Notes: generated by a model from the sequence alone, not told the origin. A stretch of 52,426 bases of DNA from a virus (IMGVR_UViG_3300030099_001111:1-52426); one strand, 5' to 3'; counted from the stretch's first letter, positions 1 to 52,426 are shown. Translations and numbers: made by a program.

Positions 1-190
1 CTTTAACCTCTTGAGCTATCAAACCTTCATCAGACTTGCCATCTGCTTTCCAGTCGTAAGCAACTGGGTTGAGTTTGTTGATAACTTCTAAACCTCTGGC
101 AGACCCTGTGATGTCTTTTAATCTAGCATCGGATGATGTGTTGTAAGTTGTGGCTGAACCTGTGATTGAAATAGTACCTACTGTTGTGCC
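1..190. repeat. Diverged direct copy of 49714-49903 (S74 chaperone region of the fibre)
   Basis: ctttaacctcttgagctatcaaacc... aligns without gaps from 49714, with scattered, mostly synonymous substitutions. Confidence 0.9.
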
Positions 191-3100
191 ATCTTTAGCA
201 AATATTGCAATGTCTCCATTATTATTTAAACGATTAAGTGCTAATGGTGGACCTTGATAACGAGCAGCAGCTATATAACCTTTGATACCTGCTACACCAA
301 TGTTAATGCCCGGATTATTTCCTGAATTATTTGTAACATTGTTATCAGTAGTACCAACCAATAAGTTACCTGAACTGTCTATACGCATACGTTCTGAAGC
401 ACCAGTAAATGTTGCCACATACTCTTCGTTTGAATGATACCTATGTCCAGCATCAACATTATTTGAAGCTGTAGCGGCAGCAAAAACATACTCACTACCA
501 GTAGTTTCTAGTTTTATATTTCCATTTACTTGTAGCTCTTGAGTAGGCGAAGTAGTTCCTATACCAACGTTGCCTTCTTGAGTGATACGCATTTTCTCAG
601 CAACACTACCACTATTAGCAGTATGGAATGATAAGTCACCACCTTGTCCTGAATCTGTGTTTGTCTCTACGTCTGCTCTTATTTTTGCATAAACTGCTTC
701 AGTGCCATTAGCTGTATTAAAACTAAAATCTAAAGCAGAAGCCGCAGAAACAGATGAATTAGGTCTATGTAAATTTAATAAACCAAATTGGTCAACTCTG
801 ACATCAAGTGCTGAAGCTGGTGAGGTTGTGCCTATACCAACGTTGCCTGTTGGGTTTAACACGATGTCTGTGTCTGCTGTAGTAGTTTCTAAAGTTAGTC
901 CTTCTCTACCGTCAATGACAAAACCACTTGTTGCATAGGAATGTATTTTATCTTCTTCATAGAAGCTTACATTTGAACCATTTTCAACTCTTACTATACC
1001 ACCATTAACATGAAGCTTCTCACTAGGCGAACTCGTGCCGATGCCTACGTTGCCTGAACTGTCTATTCTGGCTTTTTCAGTGCCATCTACATTAAATCCT
1101 AATATACTTCCTGCTGATTCGTTATTGATGTCTGCACTTATAAATAAACTACCAGCACCCGAACCTGCTGAAATGTGACTATCAGCATTTGTATCTGTAT
1201 CTGTTAAAAGTATTCTTGGAAAAGTACTTGCTATATGCAGATTAGCACTTGGCGAACTAGTTCCTATACCAACGTTGCCAGAAGTATCTATTCTGAATCT
1301 TTCTGCATAATTTGTACTAAGAGTTAAAGCAGTTCCGTTAGAACCTACTCGTATTTGGTCAGCAGTAGAGCTTGTATTACCAAATGTAATAAATGAAGAT
1401 GTCCCACCAGTATTTTTAAAATTACTAAGAATTGTAGTACCACTTGCATTTACGTCTAATTTTCTAGTTGGCGAAATAGTTCCTATGCCAACATTGCCAT
1501 TTGTACCAGTAATATACATTCTAGTATTTCCTGTGCTTGAAAGAGATGTTGCGTTGGTGTTGAAATATAAATCATTAGCAGAGCCTAGTAATAAGTTTTC
1601 ACCACTTGATGAGATTAAAGCTAGATTATCGAAACCATCATCACCAATTTTATGACTATCGCCAACTTCTATTTCACCAGTAACATCTATACCTGATGAC
1701 TTTATTTTTAATACATTAGCTGTTGTATTATTACCAAAAATGAACTCTCCCTCAACTGAAGCAATTTTAAAATTGTGACCTGCGTTTGCAGAAGAACCAG
1801 CAGTAGAAGTAAAAACATTTAAAAGTCTTAAATTAGCTGTACCACCTGTAAAATATGTATCGCCTTCTGCTGCTCCTTGAACAGTTAATCTACCTGAAGG
1901 CGAAGTAGTGCCTATGCCGACATTGCCATCTTGTTTTACAGTCATCTTTTGACTTTCAGAACCACTTGTTCCAGTCCAGAAGGTGACATCACCATACTCA
2001 TTAATAATGTCGAACTGACCAGCATTTTGATATCTTAAAAATGCTCTTCTTGTCGTGTCTTGGTCAAATCTTAAATTTGGTGAACCTGTAGAACCTGCTT
2101 GTATTTTTATGTAAGGGTTTTGCTCTGTAGCTACAATATTTCCAGCTACATCTAGCTTTTCGTCTGGCGAACTCGTTCCGATGCCAACGTTGCCTGAAAA
2201 GTCTTGGACAAAAGAACTTGGGTGAGAAGATGAGCCTATATTTAATTTACCATTGGAGTCTTTCCAAATTCTATGACTTACAGCATTACTACTTGTTATA
2301 GCAATACCATCATTTAATGTGTCACCTTTTTGTTTTACTATTACTGTACCACCTGTTGTTGCTGCACCAGTTCCACCATTAACTTCAAGTAAACTAGCTG
2401 GTGAAGTAGTACCTATGCCAAGACCTGTTGAAGTAAATCTAGCTCTTTCTGTGCTTTCTGTTTGAAAACTTAAAGCTGTACTAGTTGTTAAAATACTTGC
2501 AAAACCAGTACCTTGTTTTAAATCTAAGTTTTTAGAAGCAGTAGTATTTGTAATTCTTAATGGGTGGTTAAAAGTATCGTGTCCGCTTACTGTTAAGGGT
2601 GAGCCACTTGTAGTAGTAATAGCTACTGAACCACTAGATGTTAAACCATCAACAACTGCTGTACCTGTAACATCTATACCTGTTGAGGTTGTGGCTAGTT
2701 TTTGTGAACCTGAGTGTTTTAGATTTATTGCACCGCCAGTACGAGCAGTAAGCATTGTTTGGCTATTAGCTGTGTCAAAGAAATTAATTTCATCACCATT
2801 AGTTCTTAAAGATAAGTTTCCTGTACCTGTATCTTGTATAAAACTAGCATTACCATTGTGATATATTTGTAAATCTTGACTTGCACCTAGTCTGATTCTG
2901 TCGTTGTCGCCAAAGTCAAGACCATGTGAAAATTCAAAAACATCATTACTAGCGTTCCAAAGTAAAGTGGCATCAGTAGAAGCATCAACCGCATCTTGGA
3001 TAGTAATTCCAGCACCATCGGCTGTTGAGCTTGAATCGCCTGTGGAGTAATTGATTGTTATGTTTTTGTCTTCGACATTTAGATTGGTTGTGTCGATTGT

Positions 3101-5482
3101 TGTTGTGGTTCCAGAGACTGTGAGATTACCATCTATATTAGCATTACCAGAAAGGTGAAGGTCTTTGAATCTTGCACCACTAGCACCTAAATCTATTGCA
3201 GCATCTCTATCACCTGATGAACCTGATTGTGCTGGTAATATAGAATCACCACCATCACTAAATCTTAAACCAGTATCACCTGTTCCTATTGTTATGTCGC
3301 CTATTCTTGTACCAATAGTACCGACAACAGTGTCATCTTTAGCAAATTTTTGGATGATACCATCAGATGTTTTTCTGTTAAGGTATAAAGGTTCTCCACC
3401 ATCTCTAGCAATAGAAGCAAAACCTGAAGCACCATCAAATCTAAAACCAACTGTAGCATTATCAACTGCTGTTTTACCTATTAATAGTCTGCCTGAACTG
3501 TCTATTCTCATGCGTTCAGTATTGCCACCAGTAGCAAAAAGCATATTAGTTTGTGACCTAATAGCTAAATCATCTACTGCTGAGCCACTTATCATATCTC
3601 CTGTTGATGTAGGAACTTGTATGCCACCTTTGAATGTGCCACCATTTAAAAACCTAAGTCTTAAATCATCTGTTCCATTAATGTCATTACTACCTGAAGA
3701 AGTAATAGCACCAGTAACATCTATACCTGATGAGGTTGTTTCAAACTTTTTACTGTTGTCGTGATAAAGTTCTACAGCACCATTAGCTGTGCCATGTAAA
3801 AAACTTTCACCACTAGCTGCTTGTAGTCTTAATTGTGTAGCTCTTATTAATAAGCTGCCAGAACCTTTTTCATCTATAAAAGAATTTGCACCATCAGAAT
3901 ATATTTCTAAATCTTGACTAGCACCTAGTCTAATCTTTTCGTTGTCGCCTAGGTCTATTTGGTCGGCATATATCACACCATCTATGTATAAGTCTTTCCA
4001 TTCCTGTGAAGAACTGCCGAGGTCATAAGTATTGTCATCGTCTGGAATAATGTTTGAATCAATATCAGCTCCGAAAGAAACTGTGTCGGTTGCTGCGTTA
4101 CCAAAGGTTAGATTACCGTTGACTGTCAAGTTGCCTGTAACTAAAGCATCTCCTGCAACGTGTAGTAATGAACTAGGAGAACTTGTACCGATGCCTATGT
4201 TGCCTGATGAGTCTATTCTAAATCTTTCAACACCAGCAGTATTAAATATCATACTATCAACACCATGTGCATAGCGAATAAGACCTACATCATTATCAGC
4301 ACTATCACCAAATGCAATACGACCATCTGCACCAAGAATACTTAAACCTACATTAAATGGGTGTTCTAAAACAAGTTCTTGAGCAAGGTCTGAACGTGTA
4401 GCTCCAGATGAACTACGAACAATATTTAAATTACCTTGAGGCGAAGCAGTACCTATACCTACTCTATTATTACTAGAATCTACTTTAAGTGTTGAAGTAT
4501 CTACAGTTAAATCACCAGAGACTGCTAAGCTTGATAGGGTACCAAGACTTGTAATATTTGTTTGGGCTGCAGTTAGAACAGAGCCTGTTAGATTTCCTGC
4601 GACATTACCAGTTACATCGCCTGTCAAGTCTCCTGTCACATTTCCTGTCACATTACCGGTGACATTACCTGTAACGTTTCCTGTCAAATCTCCTGTAACA
4701 TCACCAGTCACATTACCAGTCACATTACCTGTAACATTACCAGTCACGTTTCCTGTTAGAGCTGCTTCAACTGTACCAGCTACAAAAGTTTCTGAACCTA
4801 CTGTCCATTTATCTGTGGTTTCATTCCATATTAAAGTCTTGTTAGTGCTTGTGCCTCGTTCTATTTCAATCCCACCGTTCTGTGATGGTGTTCCTGTCTC
4901 ATCTGAATTAAGGACAATGATGTTATCACCGATATTAACTTCATTACTGTTGACTGTGGTTGTTGTCCCGGAAACGGTTAGATTACCACCTATAATAACA
5001 TTGCCAGATGTATCAACTGTGGTAAATGTAGCTGCTGCTGCTGTAGTGCCACCAATAGTTACGTTATCTAGTGTGCCACCATTAATATCTGCAGTGTCGG
5101 CTACTAAGCTATCTATGTTAGCTGTGCCATCTATAAATAAATCTTTAAACTCTAAAGAGCTTGAGCCGAGGTCAATATCGTTGTCTGTAACTGGTAGGAT
5201 AGCTCCATCGGCTATGTAGAGTTGTTGGACAGGATTACTACTAACTTCTATATAGAACTCAATGTGATTATTAGCACTATCTATTAAGACTTTATTGTTC
5301 GGTGTTGTTTCTCCAGCATCACCTATTAGTCCTATAACTGGACCTTCACTAGCTGTACCATCGTGTTTGTGACCAGTAGCATTACTAAAAACTGCTAATA
5401 AATGGTCATACTCATTGTTAAATAATGCTGCGGTGATGGTATCGCCATCAGTAAATGTACTTTGTCGGGTATATCCTGCCAT
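2..5482 (-). CDS. Giant modular tail fibre, N-terminal part plus distal version A; runs off the left edge
   Basis: Not in the ORF track, presumably because it has no stop in the window. ATG at 5482 gives MAGYTRQSTFTDGDTITAALFNNEYDHLL. Spot-checked GNVGIGTxSP repeats (546, 1026, 1251, 1470, 1899, 2166, 4440) are all in this frame. It ends in SDARLKD...YDWKADGKSDEGLIAQEVK, a peptidase S74 intramolecular chaperone motif. Confidence 0.9.
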   Translation of the reverse strand, partial: MAGYTRQSTFTDGDTITAALFNNEYDHLLAVFSNATGHKHDGTASEGPVIGLIGDAGETTPNNKVLIDSANNHIEFYIEVSSNPVQQLYIADGAILPVTDNDIDLGSSSLEFKDLFIDGTANIDSLVADTADINGGTLDNVTIGGTTAAAATFTTVDTSGNVIIGGNLTVSGTTTTVNSNEVNIGDNIIVLNSDETGTPSQNGGIEIERGTSTNKTLIWNETTDKWTVGSETFVAGTVEAALTGNVTGNVTGNVTGNVTGDVTGDLTGNVTGNVTGNVTGNVTGDLTGDVTGNVAGNLTGSVLTAAQTNITSLGTLSSLAVSGDLTVDTSTLKVDSSNNRVGIGTASPQGNLNIVRSSSGATRSDLAQELVLEHPFNVGLSILGADGRIAFGDSADNDVGLIRYAHGVDSMIFNTAGVERFRIDSSGNIGIGTSSPSSLLHVAGDALVTGNLTVNGNLTFGNAATDTVSFGADIDSNIIPDDDNTYDLGSSSQEWKDLYIDGVIYADQIDLGDNEKIRLGASQDLEIYSDGANSFIDEKGSGSLLIRATQLRLQAASGESFLHGTANGAVELYHDNSKKFETTSSGIDVTGAITSSGSNDINGTDDLRLRFLNGGTFKGGIQVPTSTGDMISGSAVDDLAIRSQTNMLFATGGNTERMRIDSSGRLLIGKTAVDNATVGFRFDGASGFASIARDGGEPLYLNRKTSDGIIQKFAKDDTVVGTIGTRIGDITIGTGDTGLRFSDGGDSILPAQSGSSGDRDAAIDLGASGARFKDLHLSGNANIDGNLTVSGTTTTIDTTNLNVEDKNITINYSTGDSSSTADGAGITIQDAVDASTDATLLWNASNDVFEFSHGLDFGDNDRIRLGASQDLQIYHNGNASFIQDTGTGNLSLRTNGDEINFFDTANSQTMLTARTGGAINLKHSGSQKLATTSTGIDVTGTAVVDGLTSSGSVAITTTSGSPLTVSGHDTFNHPLRITNTTASKNLDLKQGTGFASILTTSTALSFQTESTERARFTSTGLGIGTTSPASLLEVNGGTGAATTGGTVIVKQKGDTLNDGIAITSSNAVSHRIWKDSNGKLNIGSSSHPSSFVQDFSGNVGIGTSSPDEKLDVAGNIVATEQNPYIKIQAGSTGSPNLRFDQDTTRRAFLRYQNAGQFDIINEYGDVTFWTGTSGSESQKMTVKQDGNVGIGTTSPSGRLTVQGAAEGDTYFTGGTANLRLLNVFTSTAGSSANAGHNFKIASVEGEFIFGNNTTANVLKIKSSGIDVTGEIEVGDSHKIGDDGFDNLALISSSGENLLLGSANDLYFNTNATSLSSTGNTRMYITGTNGNVGIGTISPTRKLDVNASGTTILSNFKNTGGTSSFITFGNTSSTADQIRVGSNGTALTLSTNYAERFRIDTSGNVGIGTSSPSANLHIASTFPRILLTDTDTNADSHISAGSGAGSLFISADINNESAGSILGFNVDGTEKARIDSSGNVGIGTSSPSEKLHVNGGIVRVENGSNVSFYEEDKIHSYATSGFVIDGREGLTLETTTADTDIVLNPTGNVGIGTTSPASALDVRVDQFGLLNLHRPNSSVSAASALDFSFNTANGTEAVYAKIRADVETNTDSGQGGDLSFHTANSGSVAEKMRITQEGNVGIGTTSPTQELQVNGNIKLETTGSEYVFAAATASNNVDAGHRYHSNEEYVATFTGASERMRIDSSGNLLVGTTDNNVTNNSGNNPGINIGVAGIKGYIAAARYQGPPLALNRLNNNGDIAIFAKDGTTVGTISITGSATTYNTSSDARLKDITGSARGLEVINKLNPVAYDWKADGKSDEGLIAQEVK
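546..4445 (-). repeat. Dispersed GIGTxSP module-junction repeats (10 copies) in the tail fibre
   Basis: Junctions at 546, 819, 1026, 1251, 1470, 1899, 2166, 2400, 4176, 4440; + strand consensus ggcgaagtagttcctataccaacgttgcc. Confidence 0.9.
1497..1570. repeat. 74-nt exact copy of the window end (52353-52426)
   Basis: ccatttgtaccagtaatatac...ggtgttgaaatataa is identical at both places and in the same reading frame. Confidence 0.95.
4584..4759 (-). repeat. Degenerate 12-nt tandem repeat encoding (G-N/D-V/L-T)n in the tail fibre
   Basis: acattaccagtc/tcctgtcaca units translate to TGNVTGNVTGNVTGDVTGDLTGNVT... Confidence 0.9.
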
Positions 5483-5485
5483 GTC

Positions 5486-7090
5486 TTATCTCCTGCCTGA
5501 AGGTATATAATCTACATAAAAACCATTTATAATGTAGGGTGAATTTGAATCATTACTTGAGAATCTAAAATTGTTACTATGTCCGCTACCTACTAGTGAT
5601 TCTCTAACTAGTGGTTGCTCGGCTGCTCCAAATATTGCTTGACCAAATACAGATTGACCAAAAAGTGAGGGAGCAGGTACTGAATCTAATACTATATCAT
5701 CTGGCTGTGGTATATCAGAGCTACTATAATCATATCTGACTCTAAGTGTTGGTTGTATATTACTCTCTGGTGTTATAGATATTTTAATATAATGCAAAGT
5801 TTTTAATGTACCAAAGTCTCCATAATCATAATCTGGTGTTTCATAAATAGCATTTATGTTAGTTCCATCAAAACTATGTCCAACATCATGGGTATAAACA
5901 AAACCATTAGTATCGCCATGATAGTAAACTTCAACACCATTGTTATCAAAGTTTGAGTTGACACTAGTTACTTCTAAACCTAATAATTCTGACCATTGAA
6001 AACCATTTGGTCTTAAGGTACCTACTATGCCCTTTTGAGCTGAGTTAGCTAGTACTACATTAGTGTAATAAAGTCTGTATTGTGATTTTTCTCTAATAAC
6101 TAAACTATTAATAACAAAGTCATCTATGTTTCTAGCTAGTTCACTAACAATAGGTTGTATTTGTTTTGAAACTGTACCTAACTCAACGTCACCAATTCTT
6201 GCTGTTCCGGCAACTGTTCTAAAACCATCAGCTGCTAAAAATAATAAATCACCACCAATCTCTTGAATACTATAACCACTTAAACAACCTACGTTATCAG
6301 TAATTGGGTCTATCCTAACTGTATCAGAGTTATGAAGATTAATAAGTTTATGAATACTATTTTCACAAAATATAATTAAATCTTCACGGAAACCTTTAAT
6401 ACCTACAACTTGGTCTGATAAAGTAAAACTACCACCAGCTGCAAAGTTATCAAAATCATTAACTTGACTATGAAAAACAGTATTTAAGTTACCTGCCACC
6501 CCTGCTGCTATTAAATGATTATCGTGAATAGTTATAAACTTAACTCCATTACTACCACTAACAGTTATTTCAGCAGAAAAAAATGTTCTAGTATTTAAAG
6601 CTCCTGTACCTTCCATACGAAAGCTATAAATTTTATTAGCTCCATCAGCTATAAAAACTTCACCATAGTCAAAGGTAGCACCTTCAGCTAAAGCAAAAGT
6701 ACATTGACCTTGATTAGTTCTATTTAAAATACTACGACCTGTAAAAGTTGTATGATTATCTCCACTGCCTGAAACTGAACTTCGATTTATTTGTAACCAA
6801 GTAGCTCCATCATTAGTAAAATATATATCATCACTAACACAAGCTATAACTCCATCAGCATAAGGAAAAACTCCTAAAATAGTAGCAGTACTTCCAGCTG
6901 GTTGAGCTGCAGTTACATCACCTACTTTATATTTAGCATAACCATTTACTCTACGATAACCACCTTCAATAGAAACTTCAAAGTTTTGTAGTTTAGTTGC
7001 TACTCCGGGAGTTTTTAATAAATCAATAGCATTAGATGAGGTTAGTAAACCACCATCACATGCTACTGTATAGGGTTGAGAACGTGCCAT
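5486..7090 (-). CDS. Tail nozzle / tail tubular protein B-like (P22 gp10 or T7 gp12 position)
   Basis: 534 aa, beta-propeller-like, GCLSGYSIQEIGGDLLFLAADG motif, lies between adaptor and fibre. Confidence 0.75.
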   Translation of the reverse strand: MARSQPYTVACDGGLLTSSNAIDLLKTPGVATKLQNFEVSIEGGYRRVNGYAKYKVGDVTAAQPAGSTATILGVFPYADGVIACVSDDIYFTNDGATWLQINRSSVSGSGDNHTTFTGRSILNRTNQGQCTFALAEGATFDYGEVFIADGANKIYSFRMEGTGALNTRTFFSAEITVSGSNGVKFITIHDNHLIAAGVAGNLNTVFHSQVNDFDNFAAGGSFTLSDQVVGIKGFREDLIIFCENSIHKLINLHNSDTVRIDPITDNVGCLSGYSIQEIGGDLLFLAADGFRTVAGTARIGDVELGTVSKQIQPIVSELARNIDDFVINSLVIREKSQYRLYYTNVVLANSAQKGIVGTLRPNGFQWSELLGLEVTSVNSNFDNNGVEVYYHGDTNGFVYTHDVGHSFDGTNINAIYETPDYDYGDFGTLKTLHYIKISITPESNIQPTLRVRYDYSSSDIPQPDDIVLDSVPAPSLFGQSVFGQAIFGAAEQPLVRESLVGSGHSNNFRFSSNDSNSPYIINGFYVDYIPSGRR

Positions 7091-15700: not shown

Positions 15701-15948
15701 TAGGATGTTTTTCTATAACTTCTAGTTTTTCTAGCTATTTTTTTAGGTTGTTTAGAATGTTGTTTACCTTTTTTAGTATCTTTACGTTTTTTTCTAGAAG
15801 TAGCTGCATACTCTGCTGGGGTTAAAGCTGCAATAGCAGCTGAAGGTAGATAACGTTCACCTGTTTCACTAGACTTTTTACCTGATTTAGTTCGCCACTT
15901 CTGTTTAGTCCAATTTCTAAGACTTCTTTGTGACTTTTTTAGTGCCAT
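15700..15948 (-). CDS. Small basic protein, DUF5872-like C-terminal half
   Basis: SLRNWTKQKWRTKSGK...ERYLPSAAI..LTPAEYAAT..KK....KGKQ. Confidence 0.7.
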   Translation of the reverse strand: MALKKSQRSLRNWTKQKWRTKSGKKSSETGERYLPSAAIAALTPAEYAATSRKKRKDTKKGKQHSKQPKKIARKTRSYRKTS

Positions 15949-16225
15949 GTTTCTTCCTTATTGCTACTTTGCCTTGCTGGGCGATTTTCGCCTGTTGCGT
16001 TTTACCGGCAACTTTCGCCCTTTGTTCGAGGACCGTGAGGATTTGGATTTTTCTTGCGAAGGGCTTGTTAATTTTTTTAACTTTTGCCACAGTTCTTCGA
16101 GCATCTGCTGGGGTTTTAAAAGCAATACTGACAGTATCTTTGGGGTTTTCATCTGTATATAATCTCCTGCTACTTCCTTTAGGTTTTTTACCCGTGCCAA
16201 CTTTCGGGTCTCTTTTTTTTGGCAT
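15917..16225 (-). CDS. Small basic protein (LYTDENP type)
   Basis: RRLYTDENPKDTV...KIQILTVLEQRAK; coupled to the upstream gene. Confidence 0.7.
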   Translation of the reverse strand: MPKKRDPKVGTGKKPKGSSRRLYTDENPKDTVSIAFKTPADARRTVAKVKKINKPFARKIQILTVLEQRAKVAGKTQQAKIAQQGKVAIRKKHGTKKVTKKS

Positions 16226-23288: not shown

Positions 23289-24026
23289 ATGAAAAATTTA
23301 GTAATATCAACTTTAATAACTTTAGTGTTGGTAACTGCTACTTATGTATTGCTTGGTAATTATGTCAAGCAAACTGTGAGTGACACACCAGCTTATGTCG
23401 AAGAATTTAATAAGACTAAACAAGTTTTATTAGCTAGGCTTGATAGTTTAGAAACAGAGAATGCCGAATTAAAATTAGAAAATGATGGTATCTTTCAAAC
23501 TGTATTGATAGCAGAACGAAATTTAAAAACTTTAGAAAACTTTACTAGACAGGTCGAAGCAGACTATCTTAGTTTACAAGATGAGTTTTTAATTATGCAA
23601 GGAGATTTAATACTGATAAAACAAGACGGTGTTATTTTAAAAACCCAAACAAACAGCAGTATTGCTGAATTAAAAGCAATGTTAGCCTTGTTACAAACGA
23701 AGCCCTCAGAGGCGATAGTAGAGCCTGTAAAAGCAGAGCCTTATGTTGTCTCTAATGAGGTAGAAAAAGTTGTAGCAGAGCCTGTGGCTTGTCCTAAGCC
23801 TATAAAAAATAGAAGTTTCTCTTATTATATTAAGAATGTTAGTTTAAGTAGGTCTGTGGCTTTTAGAATTGTGTATGATTTAGAGTTGGGAGAGCCTACT
23901 AATATAGAGTTTGAAGCGAATCCACCTGTCAGTTTACGAAGAGCTACTATTAGATATTTAAATAGTTTAGATTTTGGGGAGGCTACTGCTGAAAACTGTT
24001 CAATTCCCTTTAAGGTTAATGTTTGA
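23289..24026 (+). CDS. Membrane-anchored coiled-coil protein with possible TonB C-terminal-like domain
   Basis: N-terminal TM helix, long coiled coil, EPV-rich linker, ~80-aa C-terminal domain. Confidence 0.7.
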   Translation: MKNLVISTLITLVLVTATYVLLGNYVKQTVSDTPAYVEEFNKTKQVLLARLDSLETENAELKLENDGIFQTVLIAERNLKTLENFTRQVEADYLSLQDEFLIMQGDLILIKQDGVILKTQTNSSIAELKAMLALLQTKPSEAIVEPVKAEPYVVSNEVEKVVAEPVACPKPIKNRSFSYYIKNVSLSRSVAFRIVYDLELGEPTNIEFEANPPVSLRRATIRYLNSLDFGEATAENCSIPFKVNV

Positions 24027-26714: not shown

Positions 26715-28498
26715 TGGAACTTGTCTTTGATATAGAAACAAATGGATTACTTTGGGCATCATCATTAAAAGATAAAGAAACAGGCGAGGTAATTAATTTA
26801 CCACCTGCTTCAACTATTTGGTGTATTGTTGCTGTTGATAGTTCAGACAAGATATATAGTTTTAAACCAGACAGAATTGACGAGGGCATTGAGTTTTTAA
26901 AGTCTGCTGATAATTTAGTTGGGCATAATATTTTAGGCTTTGATATTCCGGCTATAAATAGGATAAAGCAGGTAAACTTATGTGACCATGCTAATATTAT
27001 TGATACTTTGACCTTATCAAGATTATTACATCCTACTAGAGAAGGGGGACATAGCCTAGAAAAGTGGGGTTGGAAACTCAACTGCCCTAAGTCAACTGCA
27101 CCGGTTTTTACAGAATACAGTGATGAAATGTTAGATTATTGTATTCAAGATGTTAAATTAAATAAAAAAGTTTTAGAAAAACTTAGACAAGATAGTAAGG
27201 GTTTTTCTAAAGAGTCTGTTAGTTTAGAACACAATACCACCAACATATTAATAGAACAAGAACTAAATGGTTTTCTGTTTGATGAGAGAAGAGCAATAGA
27301 TTTATTAAGTTGTTTAAATCAAAGAAAAAAAGAAGTAGAAGATGAAGTTCATGCTACTTTTAAGCCTAAGTGGATTCCTGTTAAGGAAGTTATACCCAAG
27401 CTTAAAAAAGATGGCACTTTATCAAAATCTGGACTTACCTCCGTTGAGTATCAGGAAAGAGTTGAAACTAATGACACTACTCCTTTTATGAGAAAAGAAC
27501 TTAGAGAATTTAATCTCGGCTCTCGTCAACAGATTGGCGAGTATCTTATTGATTTTGGTTGGCAACCTAAAAGGTTTACCCCTACCGGACAACCAATAGT
27601 TGATGAAGGAACTTTAAGCAAGATTGCACATATTAAAGAAGCTCAGTTAATAGCTGAATATTTATTAATACAAAAAAGGGTTGGTCAAATAGAGTCTTGG
27701 ATAGATAATATTAAAGACGATGGTAGGGTGCATGGTGCTGTTATTTCTACTGGCACAATTACTGGTAGAATGTCGCATCGAAATCCTAACATGGCTCAAG
27801 TACCGGCAGTATACAGTCCTTATGGTAAAGAGTGTCGTGCTTGTTGGACAGTGCCAAAAGGTTATAAGTTAGTAGGTATAGATGCTTCAGGGCTAGAACT
27901 AAGGATGTTAGCTCACTATATGTCAGACGAGGAATATATAAATGAAATTATCAATGGAGACATTCACACAACTAATCAAGAGTTTGCTGGACTTAAATCA
28001 AGAGACGAGGCTAAAACTTTCATCTATGCACTTATATACGGAGCAGGAGATGAAAAAATTGGAAGCATCGTTGCAGGAAATAGAGCAGATGGTAAACAAC
28101 TGCGAGAACAGTTTCTTGCTAGTTTACCAGCACTTAAATCTCTTAAGACAAGAGTTGAAACAGCGGCTCAAAGAAATTTCCTCAAAGGATTAGACGGTAG
28201 AAAGATATTTTTAAGACACAAACATGCTGCTTTGAACTCTTTATTACAAGGAGGAGGAGCCATAGTAATGAAAAAAGCTTTAATTTTATTGCATAACAAA
28301 CTAAAAGAAGCTAAGATTAATTTTAAGTTTGTTGCAAACATTCACGATGAATGGCAACTTGAGGTCAAAGAAAGCCAAGCAGAACGAGCAGGACAATTAG
28401 CTGTTCAGAGTATTCAAGATGCCGGTGAGTACTTTAATATGCGATGTCCTCTCGATGGCGAATACAAAGTCGGAGACAACTGGAGTGAAACCCACTAA
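26714..28498 (+). CDS. Family A DNA polymerase, T7 gp5-like, with 3'-5' exonuclease
   Basis: FDIET exo I, DASGLELR motif A, RDEAKTFIY motif B (Tyr at the 762-equivalent site), NIHDE motif C. Confidence 0.95.
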   Translation: MELVFDIETNGLLWASSLKDKETGEVINLPPASTIWCIVAVDSSDKIYSFKPDRIDEGIEFLKSADNLVGHNILGFDIPAINRIKQVNLCDHANIIDTLTLSRLLHPTREGGHSLEKWGWKLNCPKSTAPVFTEYSDEMLDYCIQDVKLNKKVLEKLRQDSKGFSKESVSLEHNTTNILIEQELNGFLFDERRAIDLLSCLNQRKKEVEDEVHATFKPKWIPVKEVIPKLKKDGTLSKSGLTSVEYQERVETNDTTPFMRKELREFNLGSRQQIGEYLIDFGWQPKRFTPTGQPIVDEGTLSKIAHIKEAQLIAEYLLIQKRVGQIESWIDNIKDDGRVHGAVISTGTITGRMSHRNPNMAQVPAVYSPYGKECRACWTVPKGYKLVGIDASGLELRMLAHYMSDEEYINEIINGDIHTTNQEFAGLKSRDEAKTFIYALIYGAGDEKIGSIVAGNRADGKQLREQFLASLPALKSLKTRVETAAQRNFLKGLDGRKIFLRHKHAALNSLLQGGGAIVMKKALILLHNKLKEAKINFKFVANIHDEWQLEVKESQAERAGQLAVQSIQDAGEYFNMRCPLDGEYKVGDNWSETH

Positions 28499-28913
28499 AA
28501 AAGACCGAAAGAAATTTGATATTGACCTTGAATATGGCAGTATCAGAGAAGATAAAGTAGCTGAGATGCTTTTCAATAAAAAGATTGAAGTTAAATCTGA
28601 GAGAGGCATGTGGATGAAAACAGGAAATATAGCTATTGAGTATGAAAGCTATGGTAAGCCCTCTGGTATAAAAGCTACTGAATCAGATTACTGGTTTCAT
28701 AATCTCTGTGTTGGAGATAAAGAGTTCTGTACTTTAGTTTTCAGCACTGAAGTCCTTAAATCTATCGTTGAAAAGTTAGATTACTTTAAAACAGTTTGTG
28801 GTGGCGACCATAATGCTAGTAGGATGTATTTAATAAATCTTCAAAAACTATTTTCATCTGATGTTATTAAAGCTTTCAAGAAAGAAATAGAAAAAAATGA
28901 CAAACAAAAATAA
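28485..28913 (+). CDS. PD-(D/E)XK-like endonuclease
   Basis: FDIDL..G..RE...IEVKSER...TGNIAIE...PSGI.AT.SDYW; start revised to GTG 28485. Confidence 0.65.
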   Translation: MKPTKKDRKKFDIDLEYGSIREDKVAEMLFNKKIEVKSERGMWMKTGNIAIEYESYGKPSGIKATESDYWFHNLCVGDKEFCTLVFSTEVLKSIVEKLDYFKTVCGGDHNASRMYLINLQKLFSSDVIKAFKKEIEKNDKQK

Positions 28914-29709
28914 AGATATAGTGGACACTTCTAAATCTGAAGTGTATAATATTAATAAGTTCACATCGGAAGCCGGACACTGGTATGACAGAGAAGGCTT
29001 ACCTGCCTACACCATAGTAGGAGCAAACGGTAAAGAACGAAACACTACCCTCAGAGATGCTAAGAAAGAAGGACTAGTTCCTTCTGTTACTACTATTTTA
29101 AATCTAGTAGCAAAACCATCACTAGAAAACTGGAAGATAAACAAAGCTTTAGAAGCTTCTGTTGCTTTAAAGAAAACAGAAGAAGAGTCAGTAGAAGAGT
29201 TTATTTACAGATGTAAAACTGCTCAGAGAGAGATAGGGCAAACTGCCGCTAGTCAAGGTACTAAAATACATGCTCTCATTGAAAAAGGTTTTGAGGGTAA
29301 ATCTAAAAACAAATCTTATTTTGCTGTTAAAGCATTTTTAGACCAGCACTTTCCTAATGAAAAATGGATTGCTGAGGATTCTTTTTGTTCTGAAAAAGGC
29401 TATGGAGGTAAAATAGATTTATATTCTAAGTCTGGTATTTTTGTAGACTTTAAAACAAAAGATAATTTAGTAGATAAGGAACCTGCTAAATTAGTCTATG
29501 ATGAACATGGTATGCAATTATCTGCTTATGCTGAAGGCTGTGGGTTTTCTAAACCTGAAAGGGTTTCAATCTTCGTAGATAGACAACAAACTGATTTGGT
29601 TTTAGGTCATATCTGGGATAAAGAATCTCATATCAAGCATATTAAAATGTTTGAAAGCTTACTAACTTATTGGAAATTAGTAAAAAACTATGACTCTGCT
29701 GTATTATGA
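28897..29709 (+). CDS. PD-(D/E)XK exonuclease
   Basis: PSVTTIL, GTKIH, YGGKIDL, VDFKT, QLSAY motifs. Confidence 0.8.
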   Translation: MTNKNKDIVDTSKSEVYNINKFTSEAGHWYDREGLPAYTIVGANGKERNTTLRDAKKEGLVPSVTTILNLVAKPSLENWKINKALEASVALKKTEEESVEEFIYRCKTAQREIGQTAASQGTKIHALIEKGFEGKSKNKSYFAVKAFLDQHFPNEKWIAEDSFCSEKGYGGKIDLYSKSGIFVDFKTKDNLVDKEPAKLVYDEHGMQLSAYAEGCGFSKPERVSIFVDRQQTDLVLGHIWDKESHIKHIKMFESLLTYWKLVKNYDSAVL

Positions 29710-35852: not shown

Positions 35853-36961
35853 CCGGAAGACTGCTTGATAGTAATGGAAGAGTTACTACCGCCATTAAGA
35901 GTAATAGTAATTGCTTTGCCATCTTGTATAATTAAAACCTTATAACTGTTGTTAGTATCTAAATCTAATCTTACTGTGTCTTCTACTTGTCTTAAGAAAG
36001 TTATAACTGTGTCAGTAATAAAAGTATTTACTTGAGTGTTAGAGTCAAAACCAAAAGCTGTGCCTTGAACACTAATATCACCAGTGTTCAAAACATTTTG
36101 TTCTAACTCATCAACTTCTTCTATAATACTTAGAAGGTCTTCTAAGAAATTTACATCTAAATAGTTGATATCAAGTTCGGTGAACTCTAAGTTATCTTCT
36201 GCTAAGTAGTCTTGTTCTAGTTCGTCAAACTCTAAATAGTCTATGTCTAGAATATTGTCCGAGCCATCTGTTTGTTTTTCTTCATTAACAAAATCTGAGT
36301 CTTGTTTTGGTGGATTGACAATCAACATGTTGTCAATAATATCTAGAGTCAAGTCTAAAATAACAGGACTACTAGGTGTTGTTTCAAGCAACTCAACTGT
36401 AGTAGCTTGATAGGGTTTGTTGAGAACTACTTGTCCTGCTAAAGTAGAAACAACTATTTCACCAGAAGCAATTCCCTGTTCATTTGGTAATAGTATTATT
36501 AAAGACCTGCCGAGTTCATCAACAGTAACAGTAAAGTCTGTTCCCCTAATACCGATAGTAGCACTTGGAGTCTTGATAGAGATGTTTTCTTTATTGATAG
36601 AGGCTAATTTGCCGGTAATAAACCTAGCTGTACCACTAGCAAACTGTAGAGCCATCTTAGATTTAGATGGGTCAGGGTCATAGATAAACTCATCTATAAC
36701 TAACTGTGAGTGTTCGGTAAGTCGAACCTGCGAGTCGTCTAGAAAAGTTATACCTATTCGACCATTAGAAGTTTCGACATTATCAAAACTATTAATAGTA
36801 AAAGCGAGAGCAGCAGTAAAGGGGTCTTGCTCCCTTACTACTCTCCCTATACCTTTTAATTCTGTTATGCTTCCTATACTAGCAACTTGTGCTGCCTGAA
36901 TCTGATTGTATGATACAGACAGTGCCATTATTGCCAGTAGAAATAATCTTAAGCCAATCAC
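35849..36961 (-). CDS. Secreted FecR-domain protein with acidic C-terminal region
   Basis: Signal peptide; D.VET..GRI.ITF.DDS.VRL.EHS.L.I...KTPSATIGIRGTDF. Confidence 0.85.
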   Translation of the reverse strand: MIGLRLFLLAIMALSVSYNQIQAAQVASIGSITELKGIGRVVREQDPFTAALAFTINSFDNVETSNGRIGITFLDDSQVRLTEHSQLVIDEFIYDPDPSKSKMALQFASGTARFITGKLASINKENISIKTPSATIGIRGTDFTVTVDELGRSLIILLPNEQGIASGEIVVSTLAGQVVLNKPYQATTVELLETTPSSPVILDLTLDIIDNMLIVNPPKQDSDFVNEEKQTDGSDNILDIDYLEFDELEQDYLAEDNLEFTELDINYLDVNFLEDLLSIIEEVDELEQNVLNTGDISVQGTAFGFDSNTQVNTFITDTVITFLRQVEDTVRLDLDTNNSYKVLIIQDGKAITITLNGGSNSSITIKQSSG

Positions 36962-49480: not shown

Positions 49481-52426
49481 TTAGTTTCCTCCTTTAAATA
49501 GCTTTAATTCAGCCTTAAGAGTCTCAATAGTTTCTATTAAGCTCTCGTAGCCTTCCATGTCCTCAAGACCTTTCGGGCTATGAGAATGTTTCTTAAGTTC
49601 TTTAATTTCTTTTTGTTGTTCTTTCATACCAGCAACTAAATGTACTACCAACTTAGAGTAATCCATTTGATAATAACCATCTTCGGTTTCTGACACTGCG
49701 TTAGGTACTAGCTCTTTAACCTCTTGAGCTATCAAACCCTCATCAGACTTGCCATCTGCTTTCCAGTCGTAAGAAACTGGATTAAGTTCGTTAATAACTT
49801 CTAAACCTCTAGCAGAACCTGTAATGTCTTTTAGTCTGGCATCTGAAGAAGTGTTGTAAGTTGTGGCTGAACCTGTGACTGAGATAGTACCTACTGTTGT
49901 GCTATCTTTTTGAAATAAAGCTACATTACCATCTGTTGATAATCTATTTAATAGTAATGAAAAGTCAGTTCTAGTTGATTTGACAATACCAATACTTGAA
50001 ATAGTTGTACCTGCTACAGCATTATTATCAGAGGTCTTACCAATCATCAAGTTACCTGAACCATCTATTCTGGCACGTTCACTCCCACCAGTTGATAGGG
50101 TCATAAAGCCATCGTTTAGAACGATTTTTGCTTGTTCTGAGAAACCTGATAAATCTATTACTTGGTCGTTATCATCTCTATCACCAAAGAAAATAGTGTT
50201 TGATTGTTTTTCTAGTGTATTTAGACCTTCTAGTTTTAAATTACCATTTAATCTTAAATTGCCCTCTACATGTAGCTTCTCACTTGGCGAAGTAGTGCCT
50301 ATGCCTAGACCTGTGTTGGTTAATCTAATTTTTTCTGTCGGTGCTGTATTAGAAGTAGAAAGTCCTATTGCTAGTGCATGGTCATTACCTGCTGCATTTG
50401 TAGATAAAGTTTGTAGATATGACCTTACTCCTGCACCACCCGAAGAACCATCATTACCATAAAACTCAATTTTACCAACAGAGCCTCCTGATGTTTGTGG
50501 GTCTGTAGTATCTTCTAATCTTATAACTGGACTAGCACTACTAACATGTAACTTCTCACTCGGCGAATCAGTTCCTATACCAACGTTGCCTGAACTGTCT
50601 ATTCTCATGGCTTCAGATGAGCCTTGTATAAATCTTAAATCTCTGCCTGTTGATGAGTTGACACCTCTTGAGTATATTGAGTTCTGTGAAGAATCAATAG
50701 CTAATAATAAACTAGCTGCTGTGCCTGTGTTTCTAACTTGTATACTTGAGCCTGATGAAGCTGCTACATCTAACTTAGCACTTGGCGAAGTCGTTCCTAT
50801 GCCGAGGTTGCCGACAGAATCAAGACGCATTTTTTCAGCATCTCTAGTTTTCCAGATATGTTTACTTGAAGTATCGTCTCTGTAATCTGTGTAAATTAAA
50901 CCAGATTCACCACCTATATTACCGCCCGGATTGTATCTAATTTCTCCATAAGCTCCAGTATTTCTATATAGTTGGATTGCTGGGTCTGGTAGAGCAGTAC
51001 CATCAGTAGATACTCTTAAAGTAGTGTTTACACCTGAACCACCTTTTACTTCTAGATTTGTATCTGGCGAAGTCGTGCCTATACCTACGTTGCCACCATA
51101 CGGGTTTAATGCTAGTTCATCGGTTGTGCCATTTGACCTACCTGACTGTATTGCATTTGTATCTGTCGTTGCATTAGCATAGCCCATATATAGACCATAT
51201 TCGTTAGCATGGTTAACTACAGACCTAAATGTAGAATTAGATATAAAGTTGCTAAATGTAGATTGTGTCGTTGTGCTACCACCTTTAACATGAAGTTTTG
51301 ACTGTGGCGAAGTAGTTCCTATACCAACATGTCCTGAACTGTCTATTCTCATGGCTTCTGAGCCTTGTGGCTTAAATGTCATACCTCTATCAACTTTTTG
51401 AAAAGCAAAATAATCACTGCTTCCATCTATTATTAGGAATGTTGGTTCTGCTGTACTACTGGTAGTAGCAAGTCTAATTTGTGTTTGCGCACTAGAACTT
51501 ACATGTAATGGCGAAACTGGCGAAGTAGTTCCTATGCCTACGTTGCCTGAGGTGTCTATTCTAAGTCTTTCAGTAGTACCCCCAGTCTTGAATAGCAAGT
51601 TTCCACCAGTTCCTTGAATTTGCGACTGCCATGCTTGGTCGATGAAGTTAATATTACCACCAGTAGTGTTATTGCTGTAAATTCTAAATTCAGGAGCAGA
51701 ATCTTGTATATGTAATAAAGCATTTGGCGAAGTAGTTCCTATACCAAGGTTGCCTGAGGGGTCAATAGATAAACGAGTATTTGTTCCAAGAACATCATTA
51801 TCTGCAATTTCAAAATTACTACTATGTACACCTATAGCAAAAGTGTTTGCAGGTTTTACAAACTTAATTTGTGGTCTTGCACTTGCACCATTGACACTAA
51901 CTGATACACCAGAAGTTCCAACATCTCTGATGAACTCTGCTATATTTGCACCACCACCACCACCTGTTACTTTAAAAGCTACAGTATTGTCATCATGGTC
52001 TACTCTTAATTTTACATCTGGCGAAGTCGTTCCTATGCCGACATTGCCTGAACTGTCTATTCTCATACGTTCAGCAGGATTAGAACCTGATGTTCTTGTA
52101 GAAAAAATCATTGATGATGATGTGTTTCCGCTTGTTGCGTTTTCTTTAATAGCATGTATGCCACCAAAGGCTGTATTAGAATCAGATTGACCAGTAGCAG
52201 CTTTACCTGTGAATGTAACACCACCACCTACACCAGCTGCCATTGCTGTATCATCACCAAGTTGTAGGACTGATTGTGTGCTTCCAAATGTTTGTGAAGT
52301 AGCGTGTACTGTAACAGGTCTATTTGGCGAAGTAGTTCCTATGCCAACATTTCCATTTGTACCAGTAATATACATTCTAGTATTTCCTGTGCTTGAAAGA
52401 GATGTTGCGTTGGTGTTGAAATATAA
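49481..52426 (-). CDS. Tail fibre distal version B with peptidase S74 chaperone; 5'-partial, continues from position 1571
   Basis: Nine GIGTxSP modules then SDARLKD...GLIAQEV...MDYSKLV; in frame with ATG 5482 through the 74-nt overlap. Confidence 0.9.
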   Translation of the reverse strand, partial: LYFNTNATSLSSTGNTRMYITGTNGNVGIGTTSPNRPVTVHATSQTFGSTQSVLQLGDDTAMAAGVGGGVTFTGKAATGQSDSNTAFGGIHAIKENATSGNTSSSMIFSTRTSGSNPAERMRIDSSGNVGIGTTSPDVKLRVDHDDNTVAFKVTGGGGGANIAEFIRDVGTSGVSVSVNGASARPQIKFVKPANTFAIGVHSSNFEIADNDVLGTNTRLSIDPSGNLGIGTTSPNALLHIQDSAPEFRIYSNNTTGGNINFIDQAWQSQIQGTGGNLLFKTGGTTERLRIDTSGNVGIGTTSPVSPLHVSSSAQTQIRLATTSSTAEPTFLIIDGSSDYFAFQKVDRGMTFKPQGSEAMRIDSSGHVGIGTTSPQSKLHVKGGSTTTQSTFSNFISNSTFRSVVNHANEYGLYMGYANATTDTNAIQSGRSNGTTDELALNPYGGNVGIGTTSPDTNLEVKGGSGVNTTLRVSTDGTALPDPAIQLYRNTGAYGEIRYNPGGNIGGESGLIYTDYRDDTSSKHIWKTRDAEKMRLDSVGNLGIGTTSPSAKLDVAASSGSSIQVRNTGTAASLLLAIDSSQNSIYSRGVNSSTGRDLRFIQGSSEAMRIDSSGNVGIGTDSPSEKLHVSSASPVIRLEDTTDPQTSGGSVGKIEFYGNDGSSGGAGVRSYLQTLSTNAAGNDHALAIGLSTSNTAPTEKIRLTNTGLGIGTTSPSEKLHVEGNLRLNGNLKLEGLNTLEKQSNTIFFGDRDDNDQVIDLSGFSEQAKIVLNDGFMTLSTGGSERARIDGSGNLMIGKTSDNNAVAGTTISSIGIVKSTRTDFSLLLNRLSTDGNVALFQKDSTTVGTISVTGSATTYNTSSDARLKDITGSARGLEVINELNPVSYDWKADGKSDEGLIAQEVKELVPNAVSETEDGYYQMDYSKLVVHLVAGMKEQQKEIKELKKHSHSPKGLEDMEGYESLIETIETLKAELKLFKGGN
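50286..52331 (-). repeat. Nine GIGTxSP module-junction repeats, all with TTCGCC
   Basis: ggcgaa on + at 50286, 50562, 50784, 51066, 51306, 51519, 51726, 52020, 52326. Confidence 0.9.
52353..52426. repeat. 74-nt exact copy of 1497-1570
   Basis: Direct comparison. Confidence 0.95.

Follow-up and report, generated by a model that had tools for sequence, protein, structure and literature searches.

Codon dialects and in-frame module shuffling at the conserved junctions of a marine phage tail fibre

Introduction

Why should the joints between the modules of a phage tail fibre be spelled, time after time, with a serine codon that the rest of the genome avoids? The question is raised by a virus record in IMG/VR (IMGVR_UViG_3300030099_001111:1-52426), which was analysed as a whole and is referred to here as the window, a linear stretch of 52,426 bases with 35% G+C and a CheckV completeness estimate of 73. 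Its tail-fibre gene is met twice on the minus strand, once at the contig start as a long open reading frame (ORF; variant A) and once at the contig end as the distal part of the same fibre (variant B). The fibre carries repeated copies of the motif GIGTxSP, here called junctions, at which serine, proline and the base before them mostly read T-TCG-CC. The original prediction, made from the sequence alone, held that this hexamer is selected as DNA, for example as a crossover, nicking or Chi-like site, so that the gene would be an integron-like, in-frame array of exchangeable receptor-binding modules, and it named gene conversion among the repeats as the mundane alternative. The observation itself is confirmed below, whilst its interpretation is partly supported, as the junctions are probably best explained by short-homology recombination and concerted evolution along a tract of ~20 nt, of which the hexamer forms the 3' edge.

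Results

Junction DNA is more uniform than its protein requires

Nineteen junctions were found in the fibre, ten in ORF 5482..2 and nine in 52426..49481, both on the minus strand, and T-TCG-CC stands at 16 of them, the exceptions being those at 819, 2400 and 4176, exactly as originally counted. The number of independent junctions is 18, since those at 1470 and 52326 are one junction seen twice in the overlap of the contig ends. In the non-fibre genes TCG accounts for 23 of 709 serine codons (3%; 25 ORFs, 10,624 codons), which gives its use at 16 of 19 junction serines a binomial p of 1e-21 and bears out the remark that the codon runs against an AT-rich genome. Nor is TCG-CCN the preferred serine-proline pair of the genome, as one of the 25 such pairs in non-fibre ORFs has this form and AGT-CCT is the common pair. 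Within the fibre, TCG makes up 19 of 304 serine codons, 15 of the 19 lying at junctions when the shared junction is counted once. The codon before the junction serine ends in T in 18 of 19 cases, whatever amino acid it encodes, as had also been claimed. Given the contrast between TCG at 16 of 19 junctions and its 3% background, and the single TCG-CCN elsewhere, the junction DNA is kept beyond what its amino acids and codon usage require.

This synonymous bias covers ~12 codons (columns -6 to +6) and not the hexamer alone. Upstream, GAC is used in 8 of 10 cases, TCA (column -4) in 9 of 10, GGC at the first glycine in 14 of 16 (p 1e-11) and AAC in 11 of 15, and nearer to the hexamer GGC is used in 11 of 19 (p 2e-6) and ATA in 16 of 19. 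As proportions, GGC, ATA, TCA and TCG are equally uniform, TCG being conspicuous through its rarity elsewhere. The statement that the adjacent glycine, isoleucine and valine codons vary is thus only partly true, and the other synonymous sites of the junction are largely as uniform as those of the hexamer. With serine and proline fixed, the positions that remain free are the preceding third base, the serine codon family and the serine third base, so that two uniform third positions suffice to produce an identical block of six bases.

The junctions are spaced at 207–306 nt in 15 of 17 intervals, the range given originally, the other two measuring 429 and 1776 nt; that all are multiples of 3 is true, and trivial for in-frame motifs in one ORF. 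Module interiors are dissimilar, as had been noted, with a median amino acid identity of 19% and a maximum of 30% (16 modules). Over the whole window there are 28 copies of TTCGCC where 5.22 ± 2.36 are expected, and none of 100 shuffles reaches 28. The 17 copies within the fibre all lie on the minus strand and are direct repeats, which excludes inversion switches, and of the 11 outside it nine are on the plus and two on the minus strand, mostly opposite to the fibre copies. Three of these 11 lie within 130 nt of each other (15891-16019, plus strand), antisense to small minus-strand ORFs, where reading the sequence showed no evident repeat structure.

Modules are exchanged as units with breakpoints at the junctions

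Compared with related contigs, the fibre gene is similar in pieces of 200–300 nt at 85–98% identity, the order and spacing of which differ. Module order is permuted between the window and three related loci (L020, L028 and L031); in L020 the piece at gene nt 4701-4937 sits between the N-terminal region and the 1277-1601 piece, and the pieces 1770-2007 and 3559-3806, which are 1552 nt apart in the window, are 205 nt apart in L031. High-scoring segment pairs (HSPs) spanning gene nt 1-1043/1044 at 87–91% identity were obtained with four loci (L009, L012, L013 and L014), and further HSPs end at 1043-1048 in L017, L018 and L021. Among 218 HSP-junction incidences, 108 stop no more than 12 nt past the hexamer, 86 start less than 60 nt ahead of it, 18 stop 13–44 nt past it and only six run through. 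Likewise, when the 40 unique 3' tract ends within 150 nt of a junction are taken over 120 fibre ORFs, 26 fall at -3 to +10 of the last C of the hexamer and one falls 40–150 nt from the junction, whereas a random null would place ~5% and nearly half of them there, respectively. The 5' tract starts pile up at -60 to -10. Junctions with AGT, TCT or TCA also serve as boundaries.

Contigs from public sequencing runs of three studies (2014 and 2025) begin their matching pieces at the hexamer edges 546, 1469, 1899 and 4440, and those of runs X9 and X11 fit from 4440 upward and carry unlike sequence below it. As these contigs are Logan unitigs with k=31, which also break at repeats, they indicate that the shared tract ends at the hexamer and do not prove individual crossovers. 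Logan joints that connect one junction with another (for example 574 to 1260, 575 to 1026 and 568 to 3492) were not counted as recombinants, their sides being only ~20–33 letters long. Judged from these sequence comparisons, module shuffling is real, and the expectation that modules are exchanged in frame as units, with breakpoints in relatives clustering at the junction, was borne out.

Each fibre gene has its own junction dialect

Synonymous usage was compared across viral fibre ORFs that have three or more unique junctions (37 ORFs, 167 junctions), at six third positions outside the hexamer where the amino acid is fixed. Third-position identity is 0.560 within ORFs against 0.419 between ORFs of similar GC content, a level reached in none of 500 permutations, and two junctions carry the same serine codon in 0.60 of the pairs taken from one ORF but in 0.28 of those taken from different ORFs. 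The dominant serine codon is TCG in 14 of the 37 ORFs, AGT in 13, TCT in five, TCA in three, and TCC and AGC in one each. Linkage between third positions decays with distance (Cramer V 0.51, 0.38 and 0.33 for near neighbours), as expected for haplotypes. Such dialects, together with the linkage, are the signature of concerted evolution and of haplotypes that spread by descent and recombination, and they directly support the gene conversion that had been offered as the mundane alternative. Within the window, the junctions of variant B are more uniform than those of variant A.

Extreme within-gene homogenisation is seen in the Synechococcus phage S-CRES2 (locus L336, fibre gene 511-4464), where six of 12 junctions are identical over eight codons (GGC AAC GTT GGT ATC GGT ACG AGT), with AGT or AAT in place of TCG.

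Mapped crossovers lie within the conserved tract and not only at the hexamer

At five junctions both an 'upstream parent' and a 'downstream parent' were available, and the switch from one to the other was placed, relative to the hexamer end, at -11 to +1, at about -46, and at -22 to -2, -20 to -6 and -20 to +3, in patterns that are sometimes patchy. The mapped crossovers thus lie in the conserved tract and are not pinned to the hexamer. For the junction at 4440..4445 the full tract extends from hexamer start -1 to +28. When the window and its relatives are taken together, 82 of 149 junctions share an exact tract of at least 20 nt with a partner whose downstream module is unrelated; the tract measures 25 nt or more at 34 junctions and 30 nt or more at 16, and it reaches 40 nt at none. 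The shared block usually runs from ~18 nt upstream of the hexamer to 2 nt past it, typically as ATA-GGA-ACT-ACT-TCG-CCA (~20 nt).

When the 30 non-nested ORFs that reach 150 aa (both fibre ORFs and 28 others) and three smaller ones were scanned against Pfam or PHROGs, no integrase, invertase, transposase, reverse transcriptase (RT) or recombinase was found, which agrees with the original remark that no integrase, invertase or RT is visible; three ORFs of at least 150 aa antisense in the fibre ORFs and one antisense in the helicase/polymerase genes stood outside these scans. The machinery proposed originally comprised PD-(D/E)XK nucleases and a gp2.5-like single-stranded DNA-binding protein or annealase. 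For the former, an exonuclease-like ORF (28897-29709) is the only candidate recombination enzyme found, with no Pfam match, no PDB sequence match and no link to the fibre shown, and the sole match of ORF 28419-28913 is an unnamed PHROG. The gp2.5-like protein was not identified, ORF 23289-24026 having no Pfam, PHROG or PDB match. 'Relaxed' recombination by phage Rad52-like recombinases (PMC3945230) may be the mechanism.

TCG belongs to phage genes and not to the motif as such

Retrieval with the fibre protein gave 79 related IMG/VR loci, which hold 133 unique junctions with TCG at 76 (57%), AGT at 34, TCT at 14, TCA at seven and AGC at two, and TTCGCC at 69. An arbitrary viral sample was drawn with a degenerate DNA pattern for G-N-V-G-I-G-T-x-(S)-P over viral contigs, at least 120 stretches that were unselected for similarity to the window, and yielded at least 253 unique junctions, in 106 of 119 new loci. 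Among the matches listed, TCG stands at 14–19% of junctions against a background of ~4% where G+C is below 0.42, and at 41–52% against 8–13% where it is 0.42–0.55, and GGC at the first glycine, ACG at the threonine and AGT at x are also enriched.

The same pattern applied to cellular genomes (120 stretches from many phyla) gave 149 junctions in 80 of the 120 loci, and these show no TCG excess (by GC bin 0/19, 14% vs 11%, 16% vs 15% and 24% vs 27% background), AGY being the favoured serine codon. TCG is thus not demanded by the protein or by the translation of the motif, and characterises a pool of phage genes. The motif GNVGIGTxSP is itself widespread in cells (L207-L326), in Patescibacteria/candidate phyla radiation, Bacteroidota, Planctomycetota, Bdellovibrionota and some archaea; cellular genes often hold several copies of it, with GGC enriched at the first glycine as in phages.

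Among isolates, HTVC168P and Ran use TCT and S-CRES2 uses AGT, in junction DNA that hardly varies along its gene, TCG being absent from all three; Kolga has TCG preceded by A, and CRP-7 (AGT-TCG) and CRP-1 have T-TCG-CC. The modular architecture and the dialects recur in isolate genomes.

The two fibre variants, the contig ends and the genome

The features of the fibre are collected in Table 1. Variant A matches the PHROG tail-fibre families phrog_9942 (6.7e-73) and phrog_18345, and its Peptidase_S74 domain (PF13884, aa 1784-1827, 32.3 bits with a cut-off of 22) is cut by the contig end. Variant B matches phrog_18345 at 1.1e-76 and the Bdellovibrio MAT fibre Bd2133 (PDB 8OND) with an E value of 1.1e-10, and by tblastn the window fibre has hits in pelagiphages, roseophages and cyanophages to genes annotated as tail fibres. 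These matches show both variants to be tail fibres of the S74-chaperone or MAT-fibre kind, the fibre being long and probably trimeric. A single-sequence AlphaFold2 model of a three-module piece (variant B aa 215-460) has a mean predicted local distance difference test score (pLDDT) of 36.5, too low for it to speak for or against a trimeric beta-helix or beta-prism fold.

Table 1. Coordinates of the fibre, its junctions and associated features in the window
Feature	Coordinates	Strand	Remarks
Tail-fibre ORF, variant A, 1827 aa	2..5482	-	Start at 5482; leaves contig start within C-terminal chaperone domain
Conserved N-terminal anchor, gene nt 1-1043	4440..5482	-	Similarity to several related contigs ends exactly at first hexamer
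Distal part of same fibre, variant B, 981 aa + stop	49481..52426	-	Leaves contig end
Peptidase_S74 intramolecular chaperone domain, variant B	49694..49846	-	PF13884, aa 861-911, 44.1 bits (cut-off 22), 2.5e-11
74-nt overlap	52353..52426	-	Identical to 1497-1570; links variant B to shared proximal gene part
End of variant A, start of S74 chaperone region	1..204	-	90% identity to 49714-49917; second rejoining point of variant paths
Junction hexamer TTCGCC, GIGTASP, aa 342	4440..4445	-
Junction without TCG, AGT TCT CC, aa 430	4176..4181	-
Junction without TCG, ACT TCA CC, aa 1022	2400..2405	-
Junction hexamer TTCGCC, aa 1100	2166..2171	-
Junction hexamer TTCGCC, aa 1189	1899..1904	-	X9 and X11 contig pieces begin at 1899
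Junction hexamer TTCGCC, aa 1332	1470..1475	-	Variants A and B part here
Junction hexamer TTCGCC, aa 1405	1251..1256	-
Junction hexamer TTCGCC, aa 1480	1026..1031	-
Junction without TCG, ACC TCA CC, aa 1549	819..824	-
Junction hexamer TTCGCC, aa 1640	546..551	-	X1 contig piece begins at 546
Junction hexamer, variant B aa 28	52326..52331	-	Same junction as 1470-1475
Junction hexamer, variant B aa 130	52020..52025	-
Junction hexamer, variant B aa 228	51726..51731	-
Junction hexamer, variant B aa 297	51519..51524	-	Second TTCGCC (Val-Ser-Pro) at 51510-51515
Junction hexamer, variant B aa 368	51306..51311	-
Junction hexamer, variant B aa 448	51066..51071	-
Junction hexamer, variant B aa 542	50784..50789	-
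Junction hexamer, variant B aa 616	50562..50567	-	GAT TCG CCG
Junction hexamer, variant B aa 708	50286..50291	-
Exonuclease-like ORF, only candidate recombination enzyme found	28897..29709	+	phrog_298 'exonuclease' 2.4e-14, phrog_1706 1.1e-5

The two fibre versions had been said to diverge right after the hexamer. Similarity is indeed gone just past TTCGCCA, although the first difference lies 28 nt ahead of the hexamer and the next at the x codon, the 74 identical bases being followed by the synonymous or near-synonymous mismatches GGC/GGA and ATT/ACT. Most likely, a single assembly contains variants A and B as two alternative paths, the distal halves of one fibre gene and not two genes, and the contig is probably one trip round the genome that passes both. 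Joining the contig ends directly would be out of frame and would break the S74 domain, as worked out from the coordinates. If, as is probable, the assembly walked through two co-occurring variants, the true genome would be ~1.5–3 kb shorter than the record. A related 48.5-kb contig (L016 and L039) is also broken within the fibre, and many related contigs terminate inside it. In one 25-kb IMG/VR contig (L023 and L045) a full-length fibre gene is directly followed by a second fibre-like gene with 30% identity to aa 340-1826 of the window fibre, so tandem fibre genes do exist in this group.

The phage is of the marine SAR11 (pelagiphage-like) type, and its structural genes share ~70% DNA identity with the Pelagibacter phages HTVC115P, HTVC103P and HTVC104P. 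The window also encodes a DnaB/primase-like protein, a family A polymerase, a ribonucleotide reductase and a terminase, together with a portal and an adaptor of the SU10 type. In the three isolates just named, the nearest by backbone, the syntenic regions hold other, smaller structural genes and not a comparable fibre.

Directly upstream of the fibre, ORF 5486-7090 (minus strand) has a full-length match to phrog_5107 'amidase' (6e-83) and weaker matches to virion structural and internal virion protein families, and its product may be a virion-associated lysin. In the proximal fibre, at ~4570-4760 (aa ~243-300), there are ~14 copies of a tetrapeptide repeat, N/D-V/L-T-G, over which environmental contigs show a joint that goes back 49 (4746 to 4698) and loose ends at 4744, and their summed depth is very high at 4576-4758; this suggests variation in repeat number or sharing with many other phages. 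Elsewhere, 34122-38845 (minus strand) is a block of host-like envelope and signalling genes, comprising a CHASE2 and adenylate/guanylate cyclase protein (34122-35852), a FecR-domain protein (35849-36961) and homologues of the curli-secretion proteins CsgG (37573-38391, 9.4e-50) and CsgF (38336-38845). The sensor cyclase is unusual cargo in a pelagiphage.

Discussion

Probable recombination and concerted evolution at the junction tract

Conservation of the junction DNA, gene-specific dialects and mosaicism bounded by the junctions are observed in these fibre genes. We infer that recombination within the tract is their cause, whether carried out by host RecA-type enzymes or by some phage functions. 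The modules, of ~70–100 aa and each ending in the structural motif (R-I-D-S-S)-G-N-V-G-I-G-T-x-S-P, would be swapped, duplicated and deleted whole and in frame by ordinary homologous or short-homology recombination between junctions, both within one gene and between co-infecting phages. Gene conversion, unequal crossing-over and tandem duplication would homogenise the junction DNA inside a gene, and junction haplotypes would travel along with the modules, so that each fibre gene would gain its own synonymous-codon dialect, which in this phage lineage includes GGC, AAC, ATA, NNT and the otherwise rare TCG. The hexamer would then be the last six bases of the shared tract, beyond which the protein sequence varies freely, and TCG would be the frozen codon of a local dialect and a useful marker of a widely shared pool of phage modules.

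Several findings weigh against this explanation. Among the four-fold sites in genes of the TCG dialect, conservation is site-specific and not tract-like, the third base of the junction serine (0.70–0.73) and that of the first glycine (0.69–0.88) being more uniform than those of the V, G0, G2, T and P columns (0.35–0.57); simple conversion tracts would not yield this extra uniformity, which is not fully explained. For the substitution rate at the serine third base, orthologous junctions yield only two pairs whose surrounding similarity tract extends 60 nt upstream and 45 nt downstream. Exact matches among the window's own junctions are short, their median being 9 nt where randomised codons give 7.7; a length of 20 nt is attained by only 13 of 153 pairs (0.5% under randomisation), and RecA-type recombination would find such matches a poor substrate. 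In 96 unrelated viral clusters, among the matches listed, TCG stands at three to five times its background per cluster, which makes it far more widespread than the dialect of a single gene. The T before NCG is also coupled across lineages, in 72 of 79 against 13 of 34 cases in the relatives and, among the matches listed, in 31 of 36 against 13 of 34 in mid-GC loci (p 5e-5). TCG junctions are more often mosaic boundaries than the others (47:3 vs 23:10), a comparison that is confounded by lineage and sampling. Finally, all of the mosaic evidence comes from metagenome assemblies, and no recombination event was observed directly.

Other explanations

The rival that survives best, though still an improbable one, is that recombination is random or illegitimate and selection keeps those chimeras that can fold, the uniform codons being leftovers of recent tandem duplication. 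The junction does match a structural motif in solved MAT fibres, a capping-loop motif in passages of one description (PMC10769870), the exact matches within the window are barely longer than random, and the greater uniformity of the variant B junctions is what a recently duplicated array would show. However, the median identity of 19% between module interiors implies that the duplications are old, yet the junction third positions are uniform; the dialects hold across 37 ORFs; and exact tracts of at least 20 nt are shared at 82 of the 149 junctions despite unrelated modules downstream.

A slightly less probable rival is the one originally favoured, in which selection acts on T-TCG-CC as DNA, the hexamer being the core of a crossover, nicking or Chi-like site and the gene a cassette array. 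In a wider form that is given the same small chance, T-TCG-CC and the upstream GGC would be a directly selected crossover core, common to the fibre genes of many unrelated marine phages. Such a core would explain why TCG stands at 57% of the 133 related junctions despite 3% elsewhere, why its excess recurs in the 96 viral clusters (among the matches listed) and not in cells, why T precedes it whatever the amino acid, and why the serine third base and GGC stand out among four-fold sites. The coupling of T with NCG across lineages, the ending of similarity tracts at the last C and, subject to the confounding mentioned above, the more frequent use of TCG junctions as boundaries point the same way. 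A discrete site is not upheld, however, as other junction codons are equally uniform, as AGT is dominant nearly as often as TCG (13 vs 14 of 37 ORFs) with AGT, TCT and TCA junctions acting as boundaries too, as the hexamer is absent in HTVC168P, Ran and S-CRES2 with Kolga having A-TCG, and as crossover intervals extend beyond the hexamer, one to about -46. Moreover, the 30 non-nested ORFs scanned showed neither an integrase nor an invertase nor an RT, the copies outside the fibre are modest in number (11) and mostly in the opposite orientation, there is no cellular excess, and a fixed serine and proline leave only two or three of the six bases free to vary. The integron-like system fails on similar grounds, there being no recombinase in the scanned ORFs and no stable hairpin. 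Were a selected core to exist, it would serve pelagiphages, roseophages and cyanophages as a common 'linker' for the in-frame trade of receptor-binding modules, perhaps with some phage or host enzyme recognising it, and the residual conservation of TCG and GGC would amount to a new recombination guide inside coding sequence, which the present evidence makes unlikely.

Translational selection has a lower probability again. Rare codons might slow the ribosome at the module boundary for folding, or codons might be kept for accuracy, and TCG (3%) and ACG (2%) are indeed the rarest serine and threonine codons of the genome and are both enriched at the junction, in a phage in which no tRNA gene, hence none for TCG, was found. 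The rare codons TCC, AGC and GGG are unused at junctions, so that one specific rare codon is favoured and not any, related isolates use the common TCT or AGT, cellular copies of the motif show no TCG excess, and the T of the preceding codon would have no role. Fibres with an S74 chaperone, furthermore, fold from the C-terminus after synthesis.

It is about as doubtful, perhaps marginally more so, that the shuffling is only apparent and was produced by metagenome assemblers that wrongly joined contigs at a repeated junction. The window is odd in having both ends in the fibre and two variant paths, many related contigs end there as well, and Logan unitigs break at hexamers. Yet the shared exact tracts are short, with 16 of 149 reaching 30 nt and none 40 nt, which would be below the k-mers expected of final assemblies; public runs of three studies (2014 and 2025) yield the same module pieces again; the codon bias belongs to each junction independently of any join; and isolate genomes share the architecture and the dialects.

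The least probable reading, an RNA or single-stranded DNA hairpin like an integron attC site, in which the upstream GGC-AAC pairs with (G)TT-C-GCC and which would link the conservation of GGC and TCG, is largely refuted, for although the segments are complementary with one bulged C, pair in some minimum-energy folds, show high GGC uniformity only in TCG-dialect genes and have a paired fraction of 0.66 against 0.585 in global shuffles, the fold z-scores of 12 junctions run from -1.95 to +1.09 with 11 above -0.5, the window has no Rfam match at the gathering threshold, the association of the serine third base with that of the first glycine (V 0.23) is no stronger than with those of the unpaired threonine (0.28) or x (0.24), and within-ORF shuffles give 0.687 against 0.696 observed (P 0.415).

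Implications

Recombination and concerted evolution at the junction tract, if correct, would bear on more than one phage. Pelagiphages infect SAR11, the most abundant marine bacteria, and fibres like this one set their host range; this type of fibre evolves by swaps of modules of 70–100 aa at one conserved joint, nearly every joint being a similarity boundary between the genomes sampled. Such swapping is a well-known route by which phages alter their host range. Shuffled junctions would also explain why such genes break metagenome assemblies, as this contig and many relatives end in the fibre. The junction codon dialects offer a simple marker for which phages share a module pool, and the junctions, as natural places to splice in frame, could be tried out in fibre engineering with laboratory pairs of phage and host. 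Full-text literature searches, in which few subscription journals were covered, turned up no earlier report for any fibre of the codon dialect and rare-codon marker shown here; structural variants in marine phage tail fibres have been reported in general terms, in the portions of one study that deal with them (PMC12379486).

Comparison with known systems

Several known systems alternate in-frame receptor-binding segments at short conserved DNA sites, namely the invertible segments of Mu Gin and P1 Cin, the R64 shufflon, integrons and diversity-generating retroelements, and the present fibre differs from each. Unlike invertible segments and the shufflon, all 17 copies of the hexamer in the fibre are on the minus strand, and no invertase was found in the scanned ORFs. 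Unlike an integron, which has a tyrosine-recombinase integrase, the fibre has no recombinase family near it as far as the scanned ORFs go (the 30 non-nested ones that reach 150 aa and three smaller ones), and in place of attC folds the z-scores are near zero in 11 of 12 junctions, with no covariation at the level of the junction. A diversity-generating retroelement would call for an RT domain, of which the scanned ORFs have none, and for adenine-specific substitution, whereas here whole modules are replaced. The hexamer also differs from Chi in that there is no genome-wide over-representation with a consistent orientation, the 11 non-fibre copies (9 plus, 2 minus) standing beside a whole-window expectation of 5.2.

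Parallels may be drawn with the concerted evolution of internal repeats, as in repeat-bearing bacterial surface proteins, and with gene conversion from silent cassettes, as in the pilin and vls systems. There too, repeats within a gene are closer at synonymous sites than repeats of different genes, and short conserved stretches flank variable segments, the difference being that no silent cassette store is shown here and that the exchange would take place between the genomes of a population as well as within the gene.

The fibre itself resembles the MAT and S74-chaperone fibres (PDB 8OND, 8OML, 8OL4 and 8OJN), with which it shares a C-terminal Peptidase_S74 domain and a repeat match that includes R-I-D-T-S-G-N-[VL]-G-[IL]-G-T-x-x-P-x-x-x-L-H-V. 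Passages on the Bdellovibrio MAT fibres describe chimeric modular tips and a conserved capping-loop motif (PMC10769870); these are, however, cellular proteins with their diversity at the tip domains, and the sampled cellular homologues show no TCG excess.

The closest known case, by analogy, appears to be the shuffling at conserved motifs in the fibre and adhesin genes of T-even phages, where chimeric adhesins recombine within or near conserved motifs, the His boxes of gp37 and the glycine-rich motifs of gp38, according to passages of one account (PMC3157838). In both, short conserved motifs alternate with variable segments, breakpoints fall in or near the motifs, and altered host recognition is the outcome, or would be here. 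The motif in the present case is GNVGIGTxSP in an S74-type fibre and not that of gp37 or gp38, and whilst experiments produced the recombinants in T-even phages, the present case is built on sequence comparison only; the present array is also by far the larger, with at least 18 units per gene.

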